A stretch of 64,000 nt of DNA from Thermoplasmata archaeon. GTDB taxonomy: Archaea > Thermoplasmatota > Thermoplasmata > Lutacidiplasmatales > UBA184. The stretch is taken from NCBI GenBank assembly GCA_050749465.1, contig JBOGRO010000020.1:47540-111539 (forward strand), written 5' to 3'. The stretch's first letter is position 1, and every line of letters begins with the position of its first letter. Under the pieces are notes generated by a model, which was not told where the DNA came from, did no database searches, and was given only the letters and a program-made list of their open reading frames with translations. Positions 6,338 through 46,227 of the stretch are shown piece after piece. The translations under genes and the position numbers were made by a program.

Positions 6338-6441
6338 GCTCCCGTAGTCTAGTGGTCAAGGATAGAGGCCTCTCGAGCCTCTGACGCGGGTTCAAAGCGG
6401 CCGGCCCCACGGGACCGGCCCGGGAAATCCCGCCGGGAGCA
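6338..6441 (+). tRNA. tRNA-Glu (anticodon CUC) with a ~31-nt intron in the T-loop
   Basis: Hand-folded cloverleaf. Acceptor GCTCCCG/CGGGAGC with discriminator A. D-stem GTCT/GGAT with a GG-containing loop. Anticodon stem GAGGC/GCCTC, loop CTCTCGA (U33, CUC, G37). T-stem GCGGG (6386-6390) pairs with CCCGC (6429-6433). The T-loop TTCAAA...T is interrupted by about 6397-6427, which contains the hairpin GGCCGG/CCGGCC. The mature length is 73 nt and CCA is not encoded. Confidence 0.8.
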
Positions 6442-10768: not shown

Positions 10769-11617
10769 GTGCATCCGGCGTTCCGGCTCGTGCGCGCCGG
10801 GAATCTCGGCGTCTCGTTCGTCGGGACCCTGGTCGGGGGGCTCGTCGCCCACGCGGCCGGGGTCGCCGGCTCCACCACGTTCTGGGCGTTGATCCTGCTC
10901 GCGGCCGCGTCGACCGCCCTCGTGACGGCCGGCGGCAACGTCCTCAACGACCTCGAGGACATCGAGGGGGACCGGGTCAACCACCCGGACCGTCCGCTCG
11001 TGACCGGAGCGGTCTCGGTGCCGGGAGCGCGCATCCTTGCGATCGGGCTCTTCGTCGCCGGCATCGAGGCGGCGTTGCCCGTCATCTTCGTCGAGCCGCT
11101 CGTGGGCGTCATCCTGGCGATCGCGCTCGCGGCGATGCTCGCCTACGAGTTCCGGCTCAAGGCGGCCGGGTGGGGAGGGAACCTGGTCGTCGCGGTCCTG
11201 ACCGGCCTCGTCTTCCTCTACGGCGGAGCGGCGGCGGGGGACCTCGTCGTCCTCGCGCCGTTCGCCGCCATGGCGTTCCTCGCGACGCTCAGCCGCGAGG
11301 TGATCAAGGACATGGAGGACGTCGCCGGGGACGTCACTCGCCGCACGTTGCCGAAGACGCACGGCTTGGCGTTCTCGGCGGTCGTCGCCCGGGCGTCGGT
11401 CGGGGCTGCGATCGTGCTCAGCTTCGTCCCGCTCTTCTGGTTCGTCTCGACCGGTACGGTCGCGGGAATTATGTATCTCGGTCTGGTCGTCGCGGCCGAT
11501 GCGATCTTCGTGGTGTCCGTCTACTACCTACCCGGCCGGCTGCACGCGGAGCAGACCTGGAGCAAGGCCGCGATGACGGTCGCGTTGTTCGCGTTCCTGG
11601 CGGTGGCGTTCCGGTGA
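10769..11617 (+). CDS. Digeranylgeranylglyceryl phosphate synthase (UbiA-family prenyltransferase)
   Basis: UbiA motifs NDLEDIEGD and KDMEDVAGD are present with multiple TM helices. The track ORF begins at 10616, but its first ~50 aa are junk-like. An in-frame GTG at 10769 gives M-HPAFRLVRAGN, a typical N-terminus. The stop overlaps the GGGPS start (GTGA). Confidence 0.8.
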   Translation: MHPAFRLVRAGNLGVSFVGTLVGGLVAHAAGVAGSTTFWALILLAAASTALVTAGGNVLNDLEDIEGDRVNHPDRPLVTGAVSVPGARILAIGLFVAGIEAALPVIFVEPLVGVILAIALAAMLAYEFRLKAAGWGGNLVVAVLTGLVFLYGGAAAGDLVVLAPFAAMAFLATLSREVIKDMEDVAGDVTRRTLPKTHGLAFSAVVARASVGAAIVLSFVPLFWFVSTGTVAGIMYLGLVVAADAIFVVSVYYLPGRLHAEQTWSKAAMTVALFAFLAVAFR

Positions 11618-25168: not shown

Positions 25169-26364
25169 GATCCGGCCTCCGCGAGCATCGACTCCACCTG
25201 GGCGAGCTTCGTCAGCGTCTCGTCGAACTCCCGACGAGGTTCCGAACGATGGACGATCCCCGCGCCGGCCGCGGTGTAGAGGCGAGGGCCGGCCGCGAAC
25301 GCGGTCCGGATCGCGAGAGCCCAATCGGCGCGGCCCCCTCCTTCGAGGAGCCCGACCGTCCCCGCGTACGGCCCGCGCCAGGTCCGCTCTTCGCGACGCA
25401 GGAGCTCCGTCGCCCGGATCTTCGGCGCCCCCGAGACGGTCCCGGCCGGGAACGCGGCGCCGAGAACGTCCCACGGCCCGGTTCCGGGGCGAAGTCGCGC
25501 GGCGACCCGGCTCACGAGGTGGTCGAGGCGGGCGAATCGCTCGACCCGCTCGACCGAGACCAGCCGAACCGTTCCCGGACGGGCGACCGATCCGAGGTCG
25601 TTCCGCGCGAGGTCGACCAGCATCCGGTGCTCCGAGAGCTCCTTCGGGTCGACCGCGAGCGGGACGCGCCCGCGCGGCGACCGTCCGTGGGGGATCGTCC
25701 CGGCGATGGGGTTGAGGAACGCGCGGTCCCGCGCCACCTCGACGACCGACTCGGGCGTCGCGCCGACGAGCTCGAGGTCGCCGAGGCGCAGATAGTAGAA
25801 GAACGCGTACCGCTCCGACGCGCGGAGCCGACCCGCGCGGGCGAGCAGGTCGGTCGGGCGACGCCACGCTCGACGGTGCGCGAGGACCACCTGGTAGGCC
25901 TCGCCCTCTCGGATCGCCTCGACCAAGCGGCCGACGCTGCGCTCGAACGCCGCGCGCGGCAGCGTGTCGTGGAGCGGTCGATCCCGTACGGCGCGGGGTC
26001 GTCGGGGGCGCCGAACCCGACGGAATGGCACCGGCGCGCGAGTCGGGCCTTCGACGAGTGCGAACGCGCCGACCGGGAAGGGGCAATTCGAGGGGAAGGA
26101 GCGGAGCCTCGGCTCGAAGAGCCCCACGGCGTCGAACCCCAGAAATCCGAACGCGGCACGCCCTCGACCCCGGCGGAGGAATCGCCCCAACTCTCGCGCG
26201 GTATCCGCCGGGCGACTGCGCGGGGTGAGCGAGTGCACGGCCGACGCCGCCAAGAACGACAGCGAACGCCCGGCCTTCCCCGGAGCGAGCGCGGCGCGCT
26301 CGAAATAGCCCGCGACCTCGCTCCCTTCCGCGGCGCGGGCGAACGCGACCCACGGGTCGGTCAT
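25165..26364 (-). CDS. trpE: Anthranilate synthase component I (short form)
   Basis: 399 aa. LNPIAGT, EHRMLVDLARND, FPAGTVSGAPK and GPYAGTVG are present. The ATG overlaps the lysC stop (ATGA). Confidence 0.88.
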   Translation of the reverse strand: MTDPWVAFARAAEGSEVAGYFERAALAPGKAGRSLSFLAASAVHSLTPRSRPADTARELGRFLRRGRGRAAFGFLGFDAVGLFEPRLRSFPSNCPFPVGAFALVEGPTRAPVPFRRVRRPRRPRAVRDRPLHDTLPRAAFERSVGRLVEAIREGEAYQVVLAHRRAWRRPTDLLARAGRLRASERYAFFYYLRLGDLELVGATPESVVEVARDRAFLNPIAGTIPHGRSPRGRVPLAVDPKELSEHRMLVDLARNDLGSVARPGTVRLVSVERVERFARLDHLVSRVAARLRPGTGPWDVLGAAFPAGTVSGAPKIRATELLRREERTWRGPYAGTVGLLEGGGRADWALAIRTAFAAGPRLYTAAGAGIVHRSEPRREFDETLTKLAQVESMLAEAGS

Positions 26365-27680
26365 CGGCCGTCCTCGCTCACCAGCACCCGATGGAGCTCC
26401 CGGAGGGTCCGGGACCCTCGCCCGAGGGGCACCGCAAGAGAGAGCGCGCGCGGGGTCGCGCTAAACCCCTCGACCCCACGGAGAACCGCCGGCGGGATGC
26501 GATGCACGTCGTCGAGCACCCCGTCGCCGATGACGGTCACGAGCGCGACCCGGTAGGGTCCGTCCAGCATCGCGGCGGCGTCGCGCGTGACCGGCGCGAG
26601 CGCCCGGATCGCGCGGACGACCTGGTGGGGGACGAGAACGAGGCAGAGGAGCGCCGACGAAGTGTAGAGTTGGACGAGGTTGACCGTCGCCTCCGAGAGG
26701 CGGCGCGAGACCTCGGCGACGATGCCGGGGCGTTGACGGCCCCCGGGAAACCGGAGCCGAAGCAGGCGCAGCGGGCGGAGGATCGTGATCGCCCGGTTCC
26801 TCCGGCCCTCCCGCGAGGGCGAGATCGTCGTCACCACCGTCGGGTCCTCGAGCGATCGAACCCGCAGTGTCACGCCGTGGGCGCGCGCCGGCTCGATCGT
26901 GAGCGGATGCAGGACGCGGGCGCCGAACTGGGCGAGCTCTTCGGCCTCTTCGTACGAGAGCTCGGGGATCGGACGGGCCTCCGGCACTTCCTGCGGGTCC
27001 GCCGAGAGCACCGCGACGTGGCGTTTGACGAGCTCCACCCGCGATGCACCGAGGAGCGCGCCGATCCCCGCCGCCGTGTAGTCCGAACCCCCGCGACCCA
27101 GCGTCGCGACGCGACCCTCGAGGCTCCGGCCGAAGTAACCGGTCACTACCGGGAGCTTTCCGGCGGCGAGGAGTCGCCCCAAGCCCCGCCGGACCGAGCC
27201 GCTCGATCGATCGAGCAGGAGGCACGAGGCGCCGTAGGCGTTGTCCGTGATGAGGCCGAGGTGGTCGGCCTCGACCGGCACGGCCGGTAGCCCGAGTTCG
27301 ACCAGCCGTGCGGAGAGCCAGTGGACCGCGAGGCGCTCGCCCTGGCTAAGGACTCGGTCCGCGAGCGGGGCATCTCGAGCGGGGGCCCGTTCGACCTCCG
27401 ACATGAGGTGGCGGAGGCGGTCGAGCTGTCGACGGCCCGCGGGCGGGAGCCCGGGGTGACGGCGAGCGAGCACTTCCAGCGCGTCGCGGTGCTGGGCCGT
27501 CGCGCGGGGGTGGGCTACGACACGGCCCAGCAGGTCGGTCACTCCCTCCCGGGCCGAGGCCACCACGACCACTCCGGTCCCTTCGGCCAGCAGCTCCCGG
27601 ACGTCGTGCGCGACCCGGGTGGGATCCTCCAAGGAGGCGCCCCCGAACTTGACGACGATGGGCGGGCGACGGCGGTTCAC
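26361..27680 (-). CDS. lysC: Aspartate kinase
   Basis: GTG at 27680 overlaps the asd stop (GTGA); 439 aa. VVKFGGASL, LGRGGSDYTA, GARVLHP and a C-terminal ACT-like region are present. The remainder of track ORF 26361..29093 is shadow sequence. Confidence 0.85.
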   Translation of the reverse strand: MNRRRPPIVVKFGGASLEDPTRVAHDVRELLAEGTGVVVVASAREGVTDLLGRVVAHPRATAQHRDALEVLARRHPGLPPAGRRQLDRLRHLMSEVERAPARDAPLADRVLSQGERLAVHWLSARLVELGLPAVPVEADHLGLITDNAYGASCLLLDRSSGSVRRGLGRLLAAGKLPVVTGYFGRSLEGRVATLGRGGSDYTAAGIGALLGASRVELVKRHVAVLSADPQEVPEARPIPELSYEEAEELAQFGARVLHPLTIEPARAHGVTLRVRSLEDPTVVTTISPSREGRRNRAITILRPLRLLRLRFPGGRQRPGIVAEVSRRLSEATVNLVQLYTSSALLCLVLVPHQVVRAIRALAPVTRDAAAMLDGPYRVALVTVIGDGVLDDVHRIPPAVLRGVEGFSATPRALSLAVPLGRGSRTLRELHRVLVSEDGR

Positions 27681-28759
27681 GCTCCCGCGCTCCAGCCGGG
27701 GGAGAGGAGACCCTCGGCGAGGGCGAGCTCCGCGTTGAGGACGGATGCCCCGGCGCCCCCGCGCACCGCATTGTGGGAGAGGAGGAAGAACCGAAGGTAC
27801 GGTGCTTCCCACCGCACGCGCCCGACGACGACCGCCATGCCCCTCGCGCGGGCCGGCGCGCCGGCCCAGCGGTCTCGGATCGGTTGGGGTCGGTCCGCCT
27901 CGGTTCGGAGCTCGATCGGGGGGTGGGGCGCGCTCGGTAGGGGCCGACCCGCGAGGGGGTCGAACCCTCGGAGCGCGGCAAGGATATCCGCCCGTGAGGG
28001 CCGCCGGGCCGCCTCGACCGTCACGGACTCGAGATGGCCCTCCCGCGTCGCGACCCGAGCGCAGTGCACGAGGAAGGGCACTCCCAGCTCGACCACCCGA
28101 CCCCCACGACGGCGGCCGAGCATGCGCGCCGACTCCTGCGCTACTTTCTCTTCCTCCTCCGGAACGAAGGGTAGGACGTTGTCCGTGATCGCGAGCGACG
28201 GGACGCCCGGGTAGCCGGCGCCGGAGAGCGACTGGTACGTACTCACGTGCACGGCCCGCGGCGCGAGCAACGGGAGAAGCGGGGCGAGGGCGACGACGAG
28301 ACCCGTCGCCGAGCAGTTGGGGTTGGCGACGAGGAGCCCCCGCCCGCTCGGTCGACCGCGGACGAGTCGAAGGTGGTCCGCGTTCACTTCGGGAACGAGC
28401 AGCGGGACGGTCGGGTCCATTCGGTGGTCCGCTGCGTTCGTGAAGACGGAGATCCCGCGGCGCGCGAGCTCCGACTCGATGGGACCGGCCGGGCCCGAAG
28501 GCAGTGCGGAGAAGACGATCCGGATCCCGGTGCGCGCGAGAGTCGCCGGAGTGAGCCGATCGAGGTGGCGATCGGCGAGCACGGGCGGGGGAGCGTCGGC
28601 CAGCTGCCAGACCTCGGCGAGGGACTTTCCCCCCGAGCGGTCGCCCGCGCCGAGGGCAGGGAGCGCGAACGACGGGTGGTCCGCGAGGAGCCGCGCGAAG
28701 TGCTGGCCGATGTACCCCCCCGCGCCCAGGATCGCGCAGGGGATCCGGTCGTCGCTCAC
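27677..28759 (-). CDS. asd: Aspartate-semialdehyde dehydrogenase
   Basis: GTG at 28759 overlaps the aroC stop (GTGA); 360 aa. ILGAGGYIGQ (NADP fold), ANPNCSATG (catalytic Cys) and SLSGAGYPG are present. Confidence 0.88.
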   Translation of the reverse strand: MSDDRIPCAILGAGGYIGQHFARLLADHPSFALPALGAGDRSGGKSLAEVWQLADAPPPVLADRHLDRLTPATLARTGIRIVFSALPSGPAGPIESELARRGISVFTNAADHRMDPTVPLLVPEVNADHLRLVRGRPSGRGLLVANPNCSATGLVVALAPLLPLLAPRAVHVSTYQSLSGAGYPGVPSLAITDNVLPFVPEEEEKVAQESARMLGRRRGGRVVELGVPFLVHCARVATREGHLESVTVEAARRPSRADILAALRGFDPLAGRPLPSAPHPPIELRTEADRPQPIRDRWAGAPARARGMAVVVGRVRWEAPYLRFFLLSHNAVRGGAGASVLNAELALAEGLLSPGWSAGA

Positions 28760-29841
28760 GGGAGGTACCCTCCTCGGAGCCCGAGGTCGGCGAGCGCCAT
28801 GGCGGCCACCGACTCGAGCACCACGACGGCCCGGGGCACGATGCACGGGTCGTGGCGACCCGTGACGACGAGGGTCGTGGTCGTGCGATCGTGGAGGTTG
28901 ACCGTCTGCTGCGGGTGAGCGATCGACGAGGTCGGTTTGACGACCGCCCGGAAGACGATCGGCATCCCGGTCGCGAGGCCCCCGAGGACCCCGCCGGCGT
29001 GGTTCGTGACCGTGCGGACCCGGCCCTCGCGCCACTCGAACGGGTCGTTGTGCTCGCTGCCTCGCATGCGAGCGGCCCGGAAGCCGGCGCCAAACTCGAC
29101 CCCCTTCACGGCCGGGACGGCGAACGCCGCGTGGGCGACGGCGCTCTCGATCGAGTCGAAGAACGGCTCGCCGAGACCGACCGGGACGCCGTCGATCCGT
29201 ACCTCGACCACACCGCCCAGGCTGTCGGCGACCCGTCGCGCTTCCCCGATCTCCGCCGCCATGCGAGCCGCCGCCACCGGGTCCGGGCTTCCGACCTCGT
29301 TCTGAAAGGAGCGCTCGCGCAGCGTCGGGAGGTCGAGGTCGGCCGGGATCGTCGCGTCGACCGAGCCGATCGACCGGGTGTACGCCACGAGATCAATGCC
29401 GCGGACGGCGAGCAGCTGACGCCCCACCGCGCCCGCGATGACGAGGCCGACGGTCATCCGACCCGAGAAGATCCCTCCGCCGGAGAGGTCCGCATCCACG
29501 CCGAAGCGCACGCGCGCCGGGTAGTCCGCATGACCGGGCCGGGGCGTGTCGCGCAGTCGGTCGTACGGCTCGCGGCGCACGTCCTCGTTCGCCACATGAG
29601 CCCGGAGGGTCGAGCCATCGGCCCGCCCGTCGAGGACCCCGCGGTCAACGAGGAGGTGGTCCTCTTCCTGGCGTTTGGTCGCCAGCGATCGTCCGACCGG
29701 TCGCCGCCGGTCCATCTGGGCCTGGACGGCAGCGAGGTCGATCGGGGTCCCGACCGGGATCCCCTCGATCTCGACCCCGACCTCGGGCCCGTGGCTCGAG
29801 CCGAAGATCGTCACCCGGAACTTCTCCCCGAATCGCATCAT
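28756..29841 (-). CDS. aroC: Chorismate synthase
   Basis: ATG at 29841 overlaps the aroA stop (ATGA); 361 aa. FGSSHGP, RPGHADY and GGIFSGR are present. Confidence 0.9.
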   Translation of the reverse strand: MMRFGEKFRVTIFGSSHGPEVGVEIEGIPVGTPIDLAAVQAQMDRRRPVGRSLATKRQEEDHLLVDRGVLDGRADGSTLRAHVANEDVRREPYDRLRDTPRPGHADYPARVRFGVDADLSGGGIFSGRMTVGLVIAGAVGRQLLAVRGIDLVAYTRSIGSVDATIPADLDLPTLRERSFQNEVGSPDPVAAARMAAEIGEARRVADSLGGVVEVRIDGVPVGLGEPFFDSIESAVAHAAFAVPAVKGVEFGAGFRAARMRGSEHNDPFEWREGRVRTVTNHAGGVLGGLATGMPIVFRAVVKPTSSIAHPQQTVNLHDRTTTTLVVTGRHDPCIVPRAVVVLESVAAMALADLGLRGGYLP

Positions 29842-34516: not shown

Positions 34517-35266
34517 TCAACTCCCGTGCAGCTCGCGTGCGATCCGGCGCGCCAGCGGGGCGATCGGGGATCGTTGGAAGAGATTCCGGCCGATGCAGAT
34601 CCCGGCGCCGCCCGCCCGGACGCTCTCCTCGACGACCCGGAGGAAGGCCGCCTCGTCCTCGAGACGAACGCCCCCGCCGATGAGCACCGGTACCGGGGTC
34701 GTACGGCACAGCTTCGCGAACTCCTCGACGGAGCCCGGGTAGCTCGTCTTCACGATGTCCGCGCCGAGGTCCGCGGCCGCCCGCGCCGCGTGACGGAGCT
34801 CGTCGGGCGTTCCGCCGTTCGCCTTCTTGACGTAGGCCATGCACAGCAGCGGGAGGCCCAGCTGTCGGCACTGGTCCGCGGCGACCCCGAGGTCGGTCAG
34901 CATGTCGCCCTCCTCGGCGATGCCGAAGTTGACCTGGACCGAGAGGAGGTCCGCCCCGAGCGCGACCGCTTCCGCCGCCGAGCCGACGAGGCGTTTGTGG
35001 TTCGAGGTCGGGCCGAGGCTGGTCGAGGCGGAGACGTGGACTCCGAGCCTCGTCGACGGAGCGAGGACCGGGGCGAGCTCCCGCACCGCGCCCTTGGTGA
35101 CGATCAGGAGGTCCGCGCCGCCCTCCTGCAGCGCGACCGCGAGGGGAGCCAGCGCTTCGAGCCCGTCGATCGGCCCCATCGAGAGCGCGTGGTCGAGGGG
35201 GACGGAGAAGAGCCGTCGCTCCGGCGTCGGGAACAGTCGCTTCAGTCGGATCGTTTTGCCGTACAT
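34517..35266 (-). CDS. aroA': 2-amino-3,7-dideoxy-D-threo-hept-6-ulosonate synthase (AroA', DhnA-type class I aldolase family)
   Basis: ATG at 35266 (MYGKTIRLKRLF...); 249 aa. SVPLDHA, KRLVGSAAEAVALGAD, ADIVKTSYPG (Schiff-base lysine region) and LIGGG are present. It is the first gene of the aro cluster. Confidence 0.78.
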   Translation of the reverse strand: MYGKTIRLKRLFPTPERRLFSVPLDHALSMGPIDGLEALAPLAVALQEGGADLLIVTKGAVRELAPVLAPSTRLGVHVSASTSLGPTSNHKRLVGSAAEAVALGADLLSVQVNFGIAEEGDMLTDLGVAADQCRQLGLPLLCMAYVKKANGGTPDELRHAARAAADLGADIVKTSYPGSVEEFAKLCRTTPVPVLIGGGVRLEDEAAFLRVVEESVRAGGAGICIGRNLFQRSPIAPLARRIARELHGS

Positions 35267-35369
35267 CGGGGTTTCCACCTTCGTGTTACTTCGAAGGGAG
35301 GACACCGAAAGGGAGCGAACCCTCCGCGTGCGGGGCACGTCGGGGCGGCGCCCTCCCGGCGCCTCCCGT

Positions 35370-35441
35370 TCACCAGAGCCAGGTCTCGGCGGCCACGACG
35401 CCCGACCGCGAGTGCACGCATCGGTCGAGTCGGTCCGCCAT
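35370..35441 (-). promoter_or_regulatory. Candidate leader peptide uORF (23 codons, MADRLDRCVHSRSGVVAAETWLW-stop)
   Basis: Hand translation of the minus strand. The ATG at 35441 sits about 28 nt downstream of the TATA-like ATAAATA. Two of the last three sense codons are TGG. It is followed by ~100 nt of GC-rich self-complementary leader before the aroA' ATG. Confidence 0.4.
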
Positions 35442-35464
35442 CGTTCGCCGGGACCCTCGCGCCT

Positions 35465-36205
35465 CTATTTATGGTTGCCCGAACCCCCGTTCGAGGCCGC
35501 GTGCGCGATCACCCCGTCGACGAGCAAGGCGTGGATCGAGAAGCCCCGGAGCATCTGGTCCCACATCTGCCGGCGGACCTCAGGAGAGTTCGCGAACCCG
35601 GCGACGATCTGTCCGATCCACTCGGAGTGCTCGACGTCGGCGGTGACGTGGAGCTGGTAGTAGGCGAGGTGGGCGTCGTCGACGCCGTAGTGGTTCTTGA
35701 ACGCGGGAAGGAGGCGCGCGCAGAGGTCGACGTTCGGCGGCTCGGACGAGCCCGCCGCGGAGACGTAGAACGGGTTCATCCGGTTCGTGTAGAGGAAGTC
35801 GTCGATCGCGACCATCGTGCTCGGGAGGAGCGAGGCGGACTGCACCTCCCCGCGCGGGACGCCGAGCCCTTCGCAGAACCGGAGCCAGAGCTCGGGGTGG
35901 CCCGGCTCCTTGCCCTTGGGGTCCCCCGCCTCCTCGACGAGCTGGTCGAGGATCATCCGACGGTACCGGTCGTTCGCCGGCTCCCACGAGCAGTTCGCGA
36001 ACCGCTCGGCCATCGCGACCGGCACGGACGCGAGCCAGGGATAGAACTGGGCGACCCACGCGCGGACGAGCGGTTTCGGGACCTTGCCGTGCTCGAGGTC
36101 GGAGAAGAACGGGTGCGTGGCGAACGGGTGGTTCGCCATCTTGAACTTGGTGAGCTCGTCGCGAAACTTCTCGCCCTCGTACCGGACCCACGGGGGTTCC
36201 GTCAT
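35465..36205 (-). CDS. Heme-oxygenase-like di-iron protein (CADD / PqqC / TenA superfamily)
   Basis: 246 aa. HPFFSDL, QFYPWL, EEAGDPKGKEPGHPELWLRFCEGLG and YYQLHVTADVEHSEW (H-x3-D-x2-H) resemble the ligand pattern of the iron-containing redox enzyme/CADD family. Confidence 0.65.
   Translation of the reverse strand: MTEPPWVRYEGEKFRDELTKFKMANHPFATHPFFSDLEHGKVPKPLVRAWVAQFYPWLASVPVAMAERFANCSWEPANDRYRRMILDQLVEEAGDPKGKEPGHPELWLRFCEGLGVPRGEVQSASLLPSTMVAIDDFLYTNRMNPFYVSAAGSSEPPNVDLCARLLPAFKNHYGVDDAHLAYYQLHVTADVEHSEWIGQIVAGFANSPEVRRQMWDQMLRGFSIHALLVDGVIAHAASNGGSGNHK
35466..35472 (-). promoter_or_regulatory. TATA-like element (ATAAATA on minus strand) upstream of the aro/trp supra-operon leader
   Basis: The only AT-rich heptamer in the 198-nt gap between the CADD-like gene and aroA'. 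It overlaps the stop codon of the upstream gene. Confidence 0.45.
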
Positions 36206-38771: not shown

Positions 38772-41700
38772 TTGGGACCTTCTCAACGTGTGCAGGCCGC
38801 GCCGGGACCGACCTCACGACCGCCCTCGAATCGACGCCGCGGTGCGTGCCGTACGCTCGTAGGCGGCGGGGTGGCGCTCGTCACCGTGGTCGTCGTCTTG
38901 TCGCTCCTCCCGACTTCCGCCCTCACCGCCTCTTCCGCTCCATCGATCGGGGTTCCTTCGACCACGACGGATCCGGGCCCCGTTCTAGGCGGTCCGCTCG
39001 TCTTGGCGCCGGTCGCCGCCTCCGACATCGTCCCCGCCGGGGCGGGGGTGATCGGCGGGCCGGGCGATGCGCCCCTTCCGATCCTCCTCACGTTGGAGCT
39101 CACGAACCGGACGGCCCTCGGAGCCTTGCTCGCGGGACTCTCGGACCCCGTCTCCGCGGAGTATCACCAGTACGTCACTGCGGCACGGTTCGAAGCCCGC
39201 TTCAGCCCTTCGCGGGCGACCTGGAACGGCGTGCTCGACTACCTCGCGGGGTTCGAGGTCTCGAACCTCACGACCACTCCGGACCGCGTCTCGGTCTGGT
39301 TCGACGCGACGCCCGCCGTGATCGACGCAATGTTCCATACGACGCTCGAGACGTTCGACCTCGGCGGTGACGACTTCGTGGCTCCCCTCACGAACCCCGA
39401 GTTGCCGTCCGAGCTCGCGGGGGTCCTCACCCAGGTCACGGGGTTGAGCACGTACTCGCAGTACACGATCCACACGGCCAGCGTCGGCCGCGTAGTCGCC
39501 CGGTCGGGCTCCCCGGGCGCGGTGGCGGCGGGCGCCCCGTCCCTCTCGTACCTCGCCCCGGTCGAGTACGACGGCGCCCAACTCGAGTACGCTCCCGACT
39601 TCCAGGTCGCCTACGACGAGCAGTCGCTCTTCGCGCAGTACGGGTACCCCACCAACGCCACCGTCGCGACCATCCTCTGGGCTGGCGCGTACAGCGGCAG
39701 CACCGTCTCCACGCCCTGCGGCACCGTCTCGACGGGCGAGGACGTCGGCCCGTTCGTGCCGGCGGACGTCTATGGCTACTTCAACGAGACGTTGCCCGCC
39801 GGGGAACCGCACCCCCGCGTCACGGCGGTTCCGATCGGCAGTGCGGCCGGCGCGAGCTGCGCGGCTTCCTGGGACTCCACCGGCGCGGTCGGGGAGAACA
39901 CCCTCGATCTCGAGATGGTGGGGTCGACGGCCCCCGGCTCGCAGATCTACAACGTCTATGGCCCGACTCCAAGCGAGACCTACCTCGACGCGGCGTTCGC
40001 CACGGTGCTGAGCCCGCCCCTGACCCTCTCTGCGGCCGCCCAGGCGGGCTTGAGCAACGTCACGGTCATCACGAACTCCTGGGGCGAGTCCGATACCTAC
40101 GACTCAAACTGGTACCAGTACCTCGAGCAGGCCCAAGCCCGCGGCATCAGCGTGCTCGCGAGCTCGGGCGACTCCGGGGACAACCCCTCCAGCTCGAAGT
40201 ACCTGGGCTCGACGGTCGAGTTCCCCTCCTCCATGTCGTACAATGCGTTCGGGATGACCGCGGTCGGCGGCACGACACCGACCCTCTCCTCCACGACCTA
40301 CCACCTGACGAGCCAGGTCGTCTGGAACATCACGGCGGCGGATGTCTCCGATGACGGCCCGGCGGGCTCCACGGGTGGGGTCAGCACGGTGTACCCCGAG
40401 CCGATCTGGCAGACCGACACGGAGGCGAACGACGCCATCGGGGGCGCCGGGCGTGGGGTGCCCGACCTCGCGGCGATCGCGAACAACACGCTCGCTACGT
40501 TGTCGGTGGATGGGTACCAGTACCGGGCCACGAACGCGTCCGGCGTGGGGCAGTTCTACTCCTTCTGGGGCACCAGCATCGCGAGCCCGCTCACCGCGGG
40601 GCTCCTCGCCGACATCGATTACGTTCTGTCGGTGAACCACACCGCTCCCCTCGGATTCCTCAACCCCTCTTTGTACTCCGTCGCGAACCGAGAGTACGCC
40701 CCGCTCCCGAACAACGCGACGGGGATTGGCGCCGAGGCCACCGGTGCGTACATCTACTCGCTCCCGACGACGCCATTCTCGGACGTGACCCTCGGCTCGA
40801 ACTACGTCTACGACGCCGCCTTCGGTTACGACCTCGTGACCGGGTGGGGCTCCCTCGACGCCTACAACTACACGATGTACGTGAAGACCACGTCCTCGGC
40901 CGGGGACCCGGGTCGACTCTCGGGGATCCAGGACCGCGTCCACTTGGCCGGACTCTCCGTCTCGTCCGCCGGGAAGACCTACAACGCCTCGACCCAGCAG
41001 AACTTCTTCCTGGCGAACAGCCTCGGGGCACCGGTCTACTGGGTCCAGAACGTCGTCTACATCTCGGGCGAGCCGGGCGCGTGGTCGATGCGGTTCACCG
41101 GGTGGGTCGTCTTCCCGTTCTACGCCGCGTACCCGAGCCTCACCGTCTACGAATACAACTGGCCGGCCACGAGCCTCGCGGAGTCGACGCCGATCGCGCT
41201 CAACTTCACCACCCAGCTGGTCGACCCCGGGGGCCTCGGGGCGGCGGTGACGTTCTCCTTCGGCGTGGCGGGCGCCTCGACGCTCACGCTCCCGGTGCCG
41301 GGCGCGTCGTTCCTGATCGGGAGCCTCAACTACACTTACACCTGGCAGGGGACGTCGTACACCAACGGCGGACCGTCCTTCGGAGCCGCCGAGGGGTTCC
41401 TCACCCCCCAGTTCGGCCTCGTCGGGGGCCCGAGTCTCGGCGTCGGGGAGTTCGCCGCTCCGACCGCCGGGACCGTTTCGGCGTACACCGCGGCGTGGGG
41501 CTCGAGCGTCTTCGTGCCCGCCGGGACCGCGACGTTCACGACGTCCGCGAGCCAGACCGCTGAGGTCGCGGCCAACCTCGAGTACACGCCGACGAGCGGC
41601 AATAACTGGACGATCAGTGTCCAGTCGGGAAGCGGGACTCAAGGGGTCCTCGCTTTCGAGAGCGGCGCCGCGGAGTACGCCGTCCAGTTCAACCAGACCG

Positions 41701-45630: not shown

Positions 45631-46227
45631 TCAGGGGGTCTTCGGTCCTCGTCCCCTGGGGGGAGTCGGGGCGGAGCCCGCCGAGGACTCCGCGAGGCGG
45701 AAGTCGAGGCGCATCTGGTTCGTCGGGGTGAAACCGACCTTCTCGTAGATCGGCCGACCAATCTCGGTCGAATGCAGCTCGACCCGAGTATATCCCCGGC
45801 GACGGGCGGACGCGACCAGTGCGGCGACAATCTGCGAGCCGAGCCCGTGACGGCGATGCGCCGGGTCGGTGTAAACCGACAGGATGTAGGGCGTTCGTTG
45901 GTGCGGGAAGCGGGGGGAGGGCTGTCGGGGTTGGAGCCACAGGAGACCGGTAGCGACGGGCACACCGGCGGAAGTCTCCGCGACGAGCCCCCACAGGTGA
46001 CGCGCGCAGAACTCTCGATGGAACCACCGACGGAAGACCGGTCCGTACGCCGAGATCGCCGGCGCCGCGAGCTCCCCGTACGAGCGGAACATCTCCATTC
46101 GGTGAGCCAAGATGGTGCCGGCGTCTCGTTCGCGAACCTTGCGAATCCGGTAGACGGGCCGGGGGGCCCGTCCCGTCTTCCGAGCTCGCCGCCCGACCCG
46201 CGGCGGTCCGTTTCGAGGTGACGGCAT
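45631..46227 (-). CDS. GNAT-family N-acetyltransferase
   Basis: 198 aa. The acetyl-CoA binding motif is VYTDPAHRRHGLGSQIVAALV, followed by YEKVGF. Confidence 0.8.
   Translation of the reverse strand: MPSPRNGPPRVGRRARKTGRAPRPVYRIRKVRERDAGTILAHRMEMFRSYGELAAPAISAYGPVFRRWFHREFCARHLWGLVAETSAGVPVATGLLWLQPRQPSPRFPHQRTPYILSVYTDPAHRRHGLGSQIVAALVASARRRGYTRVELHSTEIGRPIYEKVGFTPTNQMRLDFRLAESSAGSAPTPPRGRGPKTP

Follow-up and report, generated by a model that had tools for sequence, protein, structure and literature searches.

A putative ribosome-mediated tryptophan sensor in the leader of the aro-trp operon of a soil Thermoplasmata clade

The DNA analyzed here, hereafter the window, is a stretch of 64,000 nucleotides (nt) from a Thermoplasmata archaeon (assembly GCA_050749465.1, contig JBOGRO010000020.1, positions 47,540 to 111,539), with a G+C content of about 72%. 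On its minus strand, it carries an operon of 16 genes (35266 down to 20166, all on that strand) in the order aroA'-aroB'-aroD-aroE-aroK-aroA-aroC-asd-AK-trpE-G-D-C-F-B-A. According to Pfam and NCBIfam, the first seven products are ADH synthase (aroA'), DHQ synthase II (aroB'), AroD, AroE, a GHMP-type shikimate kinase, EPSP synthase, and chorismate synthase; these are followed by aspartate-semialdehyde dehydrogenase (asd), aspartate kinase (AK), and TrpE, G, D, C, F, B, and A. The kinase reading frame ends at 26361 and that of trpE starts at 26364, an overlap of 4 nt. Our subject is the gap of 198 nt between the stop codon of the upstream, CADD/PqqC-like gene (35465-36205, minus strand; TAG at 35467-35465) and the ATG of aroA' (35266). 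An earlier, sequence-only reading of the window had placed a short open reading frame with two terminal Trp codons in this gap and had compared the layout with bacterial Trp-codon attenuation.

The locus is as that reading described it. The length of the gap, the TATA-like ATAAATA at 35472-35466, the ATG at 35441, and the end of the upstream open reading frame (uORF) at 35370 are all confirmed on the minus strand, as is the downstream run of aro, asd, lysC, and trp genes ending in trpEGDCFBA. By our reading of the sequence, the TATA box (35466..35472) belongs to the operon promoter and shares nucleotides with the last Lys codon and the TAG of the upstream gene. The uORF (35370..35441, TGA at 35372-35370) comprises 23 codons, is predicted to be leaderless, and encodes MADRLDRCVHSRSGVVAAETWLW-stop; its putative sensor codons, UGG-CUC-UGG (W21, L22, and W23), occupy 35373..35381, directly before the UGA. 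Between the uORF and aroA' lie a long hairpin, H2 (35296..35367), and the aroA' ribosome-binding region CGAAGGUGGA (35274..35283), whose Shine-Dalgarno (SD) core, GGUGG, is at 35279-35275. The self-complementary pieces that had been listed for this spacer are also in place: GGGAGG (35367-35362) is complementary to CCTCCC (35301-35296), GGCGCC-GGGAG-GGCGCC occupies 35363-35347, and CTTCG (35296-35292) and CGAAG (35283-35279) both adjoin GGTGG (35279-35275).

We compared this leader with those of relatives that were collected, independently of the leader, through a search with the AroA' protein. One genome per species was kept, giving 80 loci at 57-88% protein identity, 79 of which belong to metagenome-assembled genomes of soil or peat Thermoplasmata (L031 is labelled only "bacterium"). 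Leaders were compared for the 77 loci with at least 150 nt of upstream sequence. In addition, metagenomes were scanned with a pattern consisting of the stop codon and the hairpin only, with no Trp codon, which returned 120 matches; pooling the relatives with the metagenome matches gave 113 distinct leaders. About two-thirds of the 120 matches are aroA' leaders, and each of these has TGG-NNN-TGG-TGA. Hairpin variants with other sensor codons were considered as a candidate class and none was found, the non-leader matches being chance hits in bacterial coding DNA. Among these, L085, L108, L160, and other metagenome loci carry a recurrent, unrelated bacterial coding sequence (...GGCGTGACCGGGAAGCGCCCGGGCGGCGC...) that matches the pattern by chance.

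Among the 77 loci, 55 have the full leader, i.e., an ORF that starts with ATG and whose end, (T/A/P/V/I)-W-(L/P/S)-W-stop, is found about 100 nt ahead of aroA'. In these relatives, the short ORF and terminal Trp codons proposed from the window alone are kept, with the frame maintained. Two further loci (L005 and L053) have the first TGG changed to GGG (Gly) in a leader that is otherwise intact, about 105 nt before aroA'; two (L009 and L014) have the leader deleted, with no TATA box, uORF, or H2 5' strand; and 18 more distant relatives have an intergenic region of 35-120 nt and no leader. The promoter is conserved together with the ORF. Specifically, (C/A)TAAATA(G) lies 26-31 nt (match start to ATG) 5' of the uORF ATG in 112 of the 113 distinct leaders, and the center of the box is about 27 nt ahead of the A of this ATG. 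Because this spacing is conserved, we infer that the uORF is leaderless, with transcription predicted to start at or beside the A of its ATG. The leaderless spacing that the sequence-only reading had pointed out thus holds across relatives, and it recurs at other promoters of the window. At the other end of the leader, a purine-rich, GGAGG-like block is found 6-10 nt ahead of the aroA' ATG in all leaders.

The reading frame of the uORF is kept even where its sequence is not. Among the 55 relatives and the window, the uORF almost always has 23 codons, and its N-terminal residues, about 16, vary freely. If the first ATG 22-38 nt after the TATA match is taken without regard to frame, the Trp codons share its frame in 111 of 112 leaders. 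The lengths are 69 nt (89 leaders), 72 nt (10), 66 nt (6), 60 nt (3), and 75, 57, and 54 nt (1 each), all of them multiples of three, and a reading of the tree together with the peptides indicates at least 10 independent insertions or deletions, again all multiples of three. The sole out-of-frame leader (L068, 70 nt) comes from a long-read contig in which frameshifts split the other genes as well. The spacer from the uORF stop to aroA' provides an internal control within the same sequences: it measures 83-109 nt, and its lengths fall into all three classes modulo three (56, 31, and 29 leaders). Since all three classes are occupied, we rejected UGA read-through or a frameshift that would join the uORF with aroA' or with the GTG that lies in frame at 35338. 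None of 51 leaders has an in-frame stop codon, and the two alternative frames contain one in 8 and 2 of the 51; by itself, this is weak evidence in DNA this rich in G+C.

The end of the uORF is conserved to a degree that the encoded peptide does not account for. All of the 117 distinct leaders counted have TGG-YYC-TGG-TGA, in which codon 22 reads CTC (97 leaders), CCC (11), or TCC (9), and never CTG. The two UGG codons are always one YYC codon apart; W23 and the TGA are invariant, and W21 is the only one ever lost (in L005 and L053). Residue 22 can be Leu, Pro, or Ser, so that the codon class YYC is conserved and the amino acid is not, and residue 20 is any of 8 different amino acids, with codon 20 ending in C in 111 of 117 leaders. 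As such, the wobble positions of C-UGG-YYC-UGG-UGA (35370-35384, minus strand) are invariant. For comparison, CTC makes up only 62% of the Leu codons in the operon genes, and conserved Leu positions of AroA' vary synonymously in the same genomes. The 35-nt core of the leader, TGGCTCTGGTGAACGGGAGGCGCCGGGAGGGCGCC, occurs once in the window, with zero occurrences expected. From these comparisons, we consider it likely that the element is a translated, Trp-codon regulatory leader.

The distribution of the leader points to the same association with tryptophan synthesis. The uORF-bearing loci form one clade in a neighbor-joining tree of AroA', and all loci of this clade with enough flanking sequence share the gene order ...aroC-asd-AK-trpE-trpG, the same through trpG. 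The outgroups, which have no leader, have a trpF or trpD homologue after the kinase instead of trpE-trpG; within the 10-kb flank, such an arrangement is found about 9 kb downstream of aroA' in L047, L054, L058, L060, L063, L064, L066, L070-L074, L076, and L079. The two loci with a deleted leader, L009 and L014, are sister taxa nested deep in the leader clade, beside L013, and their operons end after aroC, where other genes follow. In an alignment of L009:9815-10012 and L014:9880-10012, the TATA box, the uORF, and the H2 5' strand are deleted, with the 3' portion of about 75 nt and the SD kept. This suggests that the leader was lost once the trp genes no longer stood behind it, a single evolutionary event that points the right way.

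Downstream of the uORF, almost all leaders fold into one long imperfect hairpin, H2, of 67-72 nt and about 30 base pairs (bp), supported by folding and by covariation. Its start is always exactly 2 nt past the TGA, and the distance from its end to the aroA' ATG is 21-32 nt for 54 of the 56 leaders, with 36 and 40 nt for the two exceptions. In the window, H2 measures 72 nt with a predicted energy of -49.7 kcal/mol, within a range of -38 to -57 kcal/mol, and consists of a 5' strand GGGAGGCGCCGGGAGGG (35367-35351), a 3' strand CCCUUUCGGUGUCCUCCC (35313-35296), and an apical hairpin CGUGC-CCC-GCACG (35339-35327). Compared with shuffled sequence, H2 has z-scores from -2.2 to -5.7 across 14 diverse leaders and of -3.7 in the window, while the fold of the whole 187-nt window leader is unexceptional (z = -1.1), so that the H2 segment alone stands out. 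In a MAFFT alignment that was not fitted to structure, the 16-bp lower stem is 86.6% paired, compared with about 55% for slid controls. Compensatory pairs include 22:89 (GC in 31, GU in 14, and AU in 11) and 28:83 (GC in 23, CG in 10), and all five apical pairs change on both sides. H2 was scored in the consensus register; the base of the helix in the window has an extra C (CCUCCC, where the consensus is CUCCC), and the window's own minimum-free-energy structure is off by one there. RNAalifold gave only a fragmentary consensus from the MAFFT alignment, owing to poor alignment in the middle of H2. The two strands evolve unequally: the 3' strand drifts, and the 5' strand, GGGAGGCGCCGGGAGGGCGCC, hardly varies and contains two SD-like GGGAGG motifs.

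The sequence-only reading had treated these complementary pieces as competing segments and had suggested a search for mutually exclusive helices in the spacer. The GGGAGG/CCUCCC pairing is real and does have a competitor, namely the aroA' SD; the pieces listed as competing build the single hairpin H2, which that reading had not recognized. The spacer has a helix with compensatory changes (H2), and the candidate alternatives, P1 and the anti-SD/SD pairing, are conserved, though invariant or only weakly co-evolving. P1 is the palindromic local hairpin GGCGCC-GGGAG-GGCGCC (35347..35363), which competes with H2 for GCGCC; it is 96.7% paired across leaders with no variation, and covariation therefore gives no evidence on it either way. 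Two other structural candidates were rejected. A classical 1:2/2:3/3:4 scheme through the direct repeat GGGAGGCGCC/GGGAGGGCGCC is not general, the second copy being missing in the clade-2 variant GGGGAGCGCCCGGACGGCGCG, and a T-box-like or K-turn interpretation of UGGCUCUGGUGA has an impossible geometry for one tRNA and no consistent partner strand.

A second helix, P0, which was also absent from the sequence-only reading, lies within the uORF. Its 5' strand, UGGCGG (35435..35440), corresponds to nt 2-7 of the predicted RNA, running from the U of the AUG through codon 2 into codon 3, of which it takes the first base; its 3' strand, CCGCCG (35387..35392), lies in codons 17-18, 15-20 nt before the stop. 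In an ungapped alignment of 55 sequences, the register of the 3' strand to the stop codon is constant, and 76% of the cells are paired, compared with 17-52% when the partner is slid. The pairs covary (4:29 is GC in 29 and AU in 18; 6:27 is AU in 16, GC in 16, and CG in 12), giving a covariation of 0.289, compared with 0.158 for shuffled sequences, and 0 of 500 shuffles reach this value. The start codon is invariant in all three bases, although its neighbors in P0 covary. The apparent conservation of "...R-T-A-A..." at residues 17-18 of the peptide is thus due to the RNA helix, at the level of RNA rather than protein. By joining the 5'-terminal AUG region to codons 17-18, P0 would probably gate ribosome loading on the uORF and/or shield the 5' end.

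The 3' base of H2 contains an anti-SD, CCUCCC (35296..35301), whose alternative partner is the SD of aroA'. This SD lies 10-17 nt past the anti-SD (CUCCC or CCUCCC), and in the window about 27 nt separate the anti-SD from the start codon of aroA'. The pairing is possible in nearly all leaders. On average, the duplex of an anti-SD with its own SD has -12.05 kcal/mol, compared with -10.89 for swapped partners and -8.1 for a sequence like the 16S tail; a permutation test of native against swapped pairing gives p = 0.0003, a value inflated by relatedness. In constrained folds, the two states are close in energy: the H2-closed form is favored over the CUCCC-SD fold by only 3.9 kcal/mol in the median (interquartile range 1.4-6.8), and in 9 of 54 leaders the alternative is at least as stable.

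Altogether, these results lead us to propose that the gap encodes a ribosome-mediated Trp sensor, an archaeal counterpart of the leader-peptide attenuator that most likely acts on aroA' translation; on balance, we lean toward this reading. In the proposed mechanism, the TATA box inside the end of the upstream gene would start the operon mRNA at or beside the AUG of the leaderless 23-codon ORF, and a ribosome loading at this 5' end would have to read UGG at codons 21 and 23 just before the UGA. The GGGAGG at the 5' base of H2 would act as a decoy SD that holds the anti-SD CUCCC. When Trp-tRNA is short, the ribosome would halt at either UGG, short of H2, so that H2 stays closed, the aroA' SD is free, and the operon is on. 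When Trp is plentiful, the ribosome at the stop codon would invade the base of H2 and free the anti-SD, which would then pair with the real SD, lowering initiation at aroA' and turning the operon off; translational coupling or polarity would reduce the genes behind aroA' as well. This specific decoy-SD mechanism is the more tentative part of the proposal, possible rather than probable in our estimate.

To illustrate the mechanism, we modeled the leader with a ribosome held at each of three positions, under two assumed geometries. The first geometry permits a duplex up to +11 from the first P-site nucleotide, following the position of the helicase in bacterial ribosomes. The second uses a nuclease footprint and permits a duplex only from +15 from the P site; the footprint of Haloferax ribosomes is 27 nt and begins 12 nt 5' of the P site (PMC7261190). 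Under the first geometry, with UGG23 in the A site, the first G of H2 is at +12, and a ribosome waiting at either UGG therefore spares H2. With UGA in the A site, the model opens three G:C pairs of H2. The predicted unpaired probability of the SD core is 0.45 with the ribosome at W21, 0.42 at W23, and 0.28 at the stop, and across the leaders the accessibility of the SD falls by more than 0.2 toward the stop position in 20 sequences and rises in 1. Under the second geometry, the corresponding values are 0.40, 0.25, and 0.24.

Several points weigh against this proposal. Under the second geometry, a ribosome waiting at W23 already opens H2, which is the wrong sign for a biosynthetic operon; as the two geometries differ at W23, the predicted direction of the response depends on the geometry of the ribosome. 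Its predicted size is also modest, with the accessibility of the SD dropping no further than from about 0.45 to 0.28. H2-closed, the "on" state, is the equilibrium fold, and repression would require slow termination or a co-transcriptional decision. P0 should make repeated ribosome loading on the uORF less frequent, an argument against a steady occupancy of the stop codon. The complementarity of the SD and the anti-SD is partly trivial, since CCUCC will pair with any SD, and in the median the native partner ranks only 19th of 54. The invariant Trp codon is W23 rather than W21, which two genomes lack. Control by Trp only would, moreover, throttle the supply of chorismate for Phe and Tyr. The model also leaves the near-invariance of the H2 5' strand and the constraint on the wobble positions unexplained; taken together, these two features suggest a further sequence-specific interaction, whose partner could be the ribosome, a factor, or a third RNA. 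Lastly, this is a sensor model for an uncultured lineage, built from sequence comparison and folding models.

A variant of this proposal keeps the same Trp-codon sensor and makes its output transcriptional: the position of the ribosome would set the passage of RNA polymerase through the spacer of about 100 nt, through factor-dependent termination or polarity of the FttA/aCPSF1 type or through pausing at H2. The order of sensor codons, stop codon, and strong hairpin is indeed the layout of a classical attenuator, transcription and translation are coupled in archaea, with FttA giving Rho-like polarity, and P0 would restrict the uORF to one round of co-transcriptional translation, which would suit a kinetic decision. 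However, the spacer lacks the oligo-T tract that is the known archaeal signal for intrinsic termination. Runs of T are no longer than 4 in 115 of 116 spacers, and no U-tract follows H2 in the window leader; the short T runs make an intrinsic terminator, bacterial-style or archaeal, unlikely, and factor-dependent polarity is possible. Furthermore, no entry site for a factor is marked in the sequence, and the conserved SD/anti-SD alternative would be superfluous for a purely transcriptional device. We therefore consider a transcriptional output unlikely, even with the sensor itself intact.

A different use of the same stop codon would be a nascent-peptide arrest like that of TnaC, in which free Trp lets ...W-L-W block release at the UGA, the base of H2 is held open, and the anti-SD masks the aroA' SD. 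A ribosome that lingers at the stop in this way would keep the operon stably "off", which is the correct sign under both geometries, and all leaders have Trp as the final residue, UGA as the stop, and the hairpin 2 nt further on. Nevertheless, known arrest peptides require several fixed residues, and the peptide here is not conserved beyond W-x-W: residues 20 and 22 vary, residues 2-16 are free, and the constraint on residues 17-18 is explained by P0. This makes arrest, in our view, quite improbable.

Slightly less probable again is a structured regulatory RNA, i.e., a riboswitch or a protein-binding leader, with an incidental and untranslated ORF. Selection on the RNA itself is suggested by the two covarying helices and by a 35-nt core whose wobble positions, too, are conserved; P0 partly buries the AUG; and the scarcity of stops is expected in part from 72% GC DNA, given the 8 of 51 and 2 of 51 leaders with stops in the other frames. 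An incidental ORF, however, would not explain why the ATG is invariant while its neighbors covary, or why 111 of 112 leaders are in frame over at least 10 independent indels next to a spacer without 3-nt periodicity. The TATA box also puts the start at the AUG, the leader has no Rfam match even at E <= 10, and the element is lost together with the trp genes. Finally, a constitutive device that does not sense Trp, whether by termination-reinitiation or shunting over the hairpin base to aroA' or by protection from 5'-to-3' decay, would draw on the way H2 brings the stop codon near the region just upstream of the SD, on P0 and H2 both blocking 5' exonucleases, and on the layout of plant pararetrovirus shunting, in which a short ORF ends just ahead of a stable hairpin, but it is very improbable, as it leaves unexplained both the two UGG codons as the only invariant sense codons before a Trp operon and the disappearance of the element in a lineage without trp genes.

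The preferred reading, a Trp sensor acting on aroA' translation, can be placed among known systems. Leader-peptide attenuation is a textbook bacterial mechanism, and archaeal control of trp has been described in terms of DNA-binding regulators. Among these, the archaeal TrpY repressor regulates trp in methanogens and Thermococcales; it shares with our element the control by Trp of the same pathway in an archaeon and differs in being a DNA-binding protein that acts at promoters, whereas here a conserved ORF and compensatory RNA helices lie downstream of the predicted transcription start. TRAP-type leaders carry about 9-11 (G/U)AG triplets spaced 2-3 nt apart, and direct reading of the leader and of the alignments revealed no such array. 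Rfam 15 gave no match to the leader, either at gathering thresholds in a scan of the window or at E <= 10 for 35200-35520. Full-text literature searches found no archaeal leader-peptide attenuator, and a Methanosarcina ribosome-profiling study names small ORFs in 5' untranslated regions only as potential uORFs (PMC11456600).

The resemblance to bacterial Trp attenuation that the sequence-only reading had noted is supported as far as sequence goes: of the refuting conditions it had set, none that sequence comparison can address came true, and the trp-linked loss of the leader agrees with it. With no oligo-T terminator, the element is no copy of bacterial transcription attenuation. E. coli trpL and the actinobacterial trp leaders (PMC1262725, as described in PMC4007540) likewise have a short ORF at the head of the operon, two Trp codons near its stop, helices that begin at the end of the ORF, and a fold decided by the position of the ribosome. 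Here, in contrast, the host is an archaeon, the ORF is leaderless, and the Trp codons are one codon apart directly at the stop; a single long hairpin takes the place of the 1:2/2:3/3:4 set, and there is no terminator U-run and no similarity in sequence or in Rfam; and the operon is a 16-gene aro-asd-lysC-trp fusion. Leader peptides that are themselves leaderless have been predicted in Deinococcus (PMC4007540).

The closest functional analogues are bacterial and include, above all, the leaderless poly-Cys short ORFs of mycobacteria (Ms5788A; the "ribulon"), which are translational attenuators that control the next gene's ribosome-binding site (bioRxiv 10.1101/834739). In both systems, a leaderless sensor ORF is the first cistron, the charged tRNA of the pathway's end product is sensed, and the proposed output is access to the SD of the next gene through an RNA duplex. 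The mycobacterial elements differ in being bacterial, in using consecutive Cys codons, and in that a stalled ribosome blocks the duplex that sequesters the ribosome-binding site, whereas here a decoy-SD/anti-SD/SD switch is predicted to be opened by a terminating ribosome and an extra helix, P0, buries the 5' AUG. The ermCL and cat leaders and TnaC also hold a ribosome at a defined leader codon and thereby remodel a downstream hairpin, and TnaC further shares Trp, a UGA stop, and a peptide of 24 residues. They depend, however, on conserved nascent-peptide residues and a small-molecule ligand, whereas only W-x-W is conserved here, and the tna operon is catabolic and acts through Rho.

The element thus works like bacterial attenuators in its proposed operation, yet is a member of none of their families: it has no terminator, no consecutive sensor codons, no homology with them, and belongs to another domain of life. 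The description that fits best is a new archaeal variant of ribosome-mediated attenuation. In a stronger form, which we hold to be somewhat less likely than not, it may be the first ribosome-mediated amino-acid attenuator in Archaea, invented independently in one clade of soil Thermoplasmata. It would consist of a leaderless 23-codon ORF with two UGG codons, a three-way decoy-SD/anti-SD/SD switch 2 nt past the stop that sets the translation (and, by polarity, perhaps the transcription) of a 16-gene aro-trp operon, and a 5'-terminal helix that gates loading at the AUG. If this is true, archaeal ribosomes also serve as metabolite sensors, and do so on leaderless mRNA whose start-codon access can be regulated by RNA. 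At about 175 nt, the element would be a compact object for studying how archaeal translation is coupled to RNA folding and transcription, SD-dependent initiation inside operons, and leaderless initiation. It would also provide a template for searching archaea for sister elements that respond to other amino acids: a TATA box, an AUG about 27 nt on, a short ORF rich in one codon, and a hairpin.

Other features of the window bear on the setting of the leader. TATA-like boxes lie 25-31 nt ahead of the starts of long ORFs elsewhere, at 38790 (+), 46277 (+), 46227 (-), 10637 (-), and 54203 (+); AT-rich boxes of this kind are scarce in a window of 72% GC, and those at 46227 and 46277 form a divergent pair. 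Because several such boxes precede long ORFs at this spacing, the sequence suggests that many genes in the window are leaderless. A second leaderless short-ORF candidate, at 11499, was rejected, as it sits within a coding region, and Pfam revealed no other amino-acid operon among ten further large ORFs of the window. At 6338-6409 (+), Rfam gave a borderline tRNA match (29.2 bits, compared with a gathering score of 29.0); ARAGORN reported no tRNA in the window.

Within the operon, asd and the aspartate kinase gene (26361-29035, minus strand) are placed inside the aro run, between aroC and trpE. This placement fits the archaeal ADH-synthase route, which uses up aspartate semialdehyde, and a leader that responds only to Trp would also co-regulate the supply of this compound. 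The gene on the other side of the leader is annotated as an "iron-containing redox enzyme", with Pfam Haem_oxygenas_2 and the NCBIfam CADD family (below its cutoff). A CADD-type role in p-aminobenzoate/folate metabolism would fit the chorismate context. By tblastn, a CADD/PqqC-like gene lies directly 5' of aroA' in nearly all of the loci L001-L080 with upstream flank, most outgroups included. In the uORF-bearing relatives, this gene ends in K-x-K-stop, and these last codons are the TATA box of the aro-trp operon.

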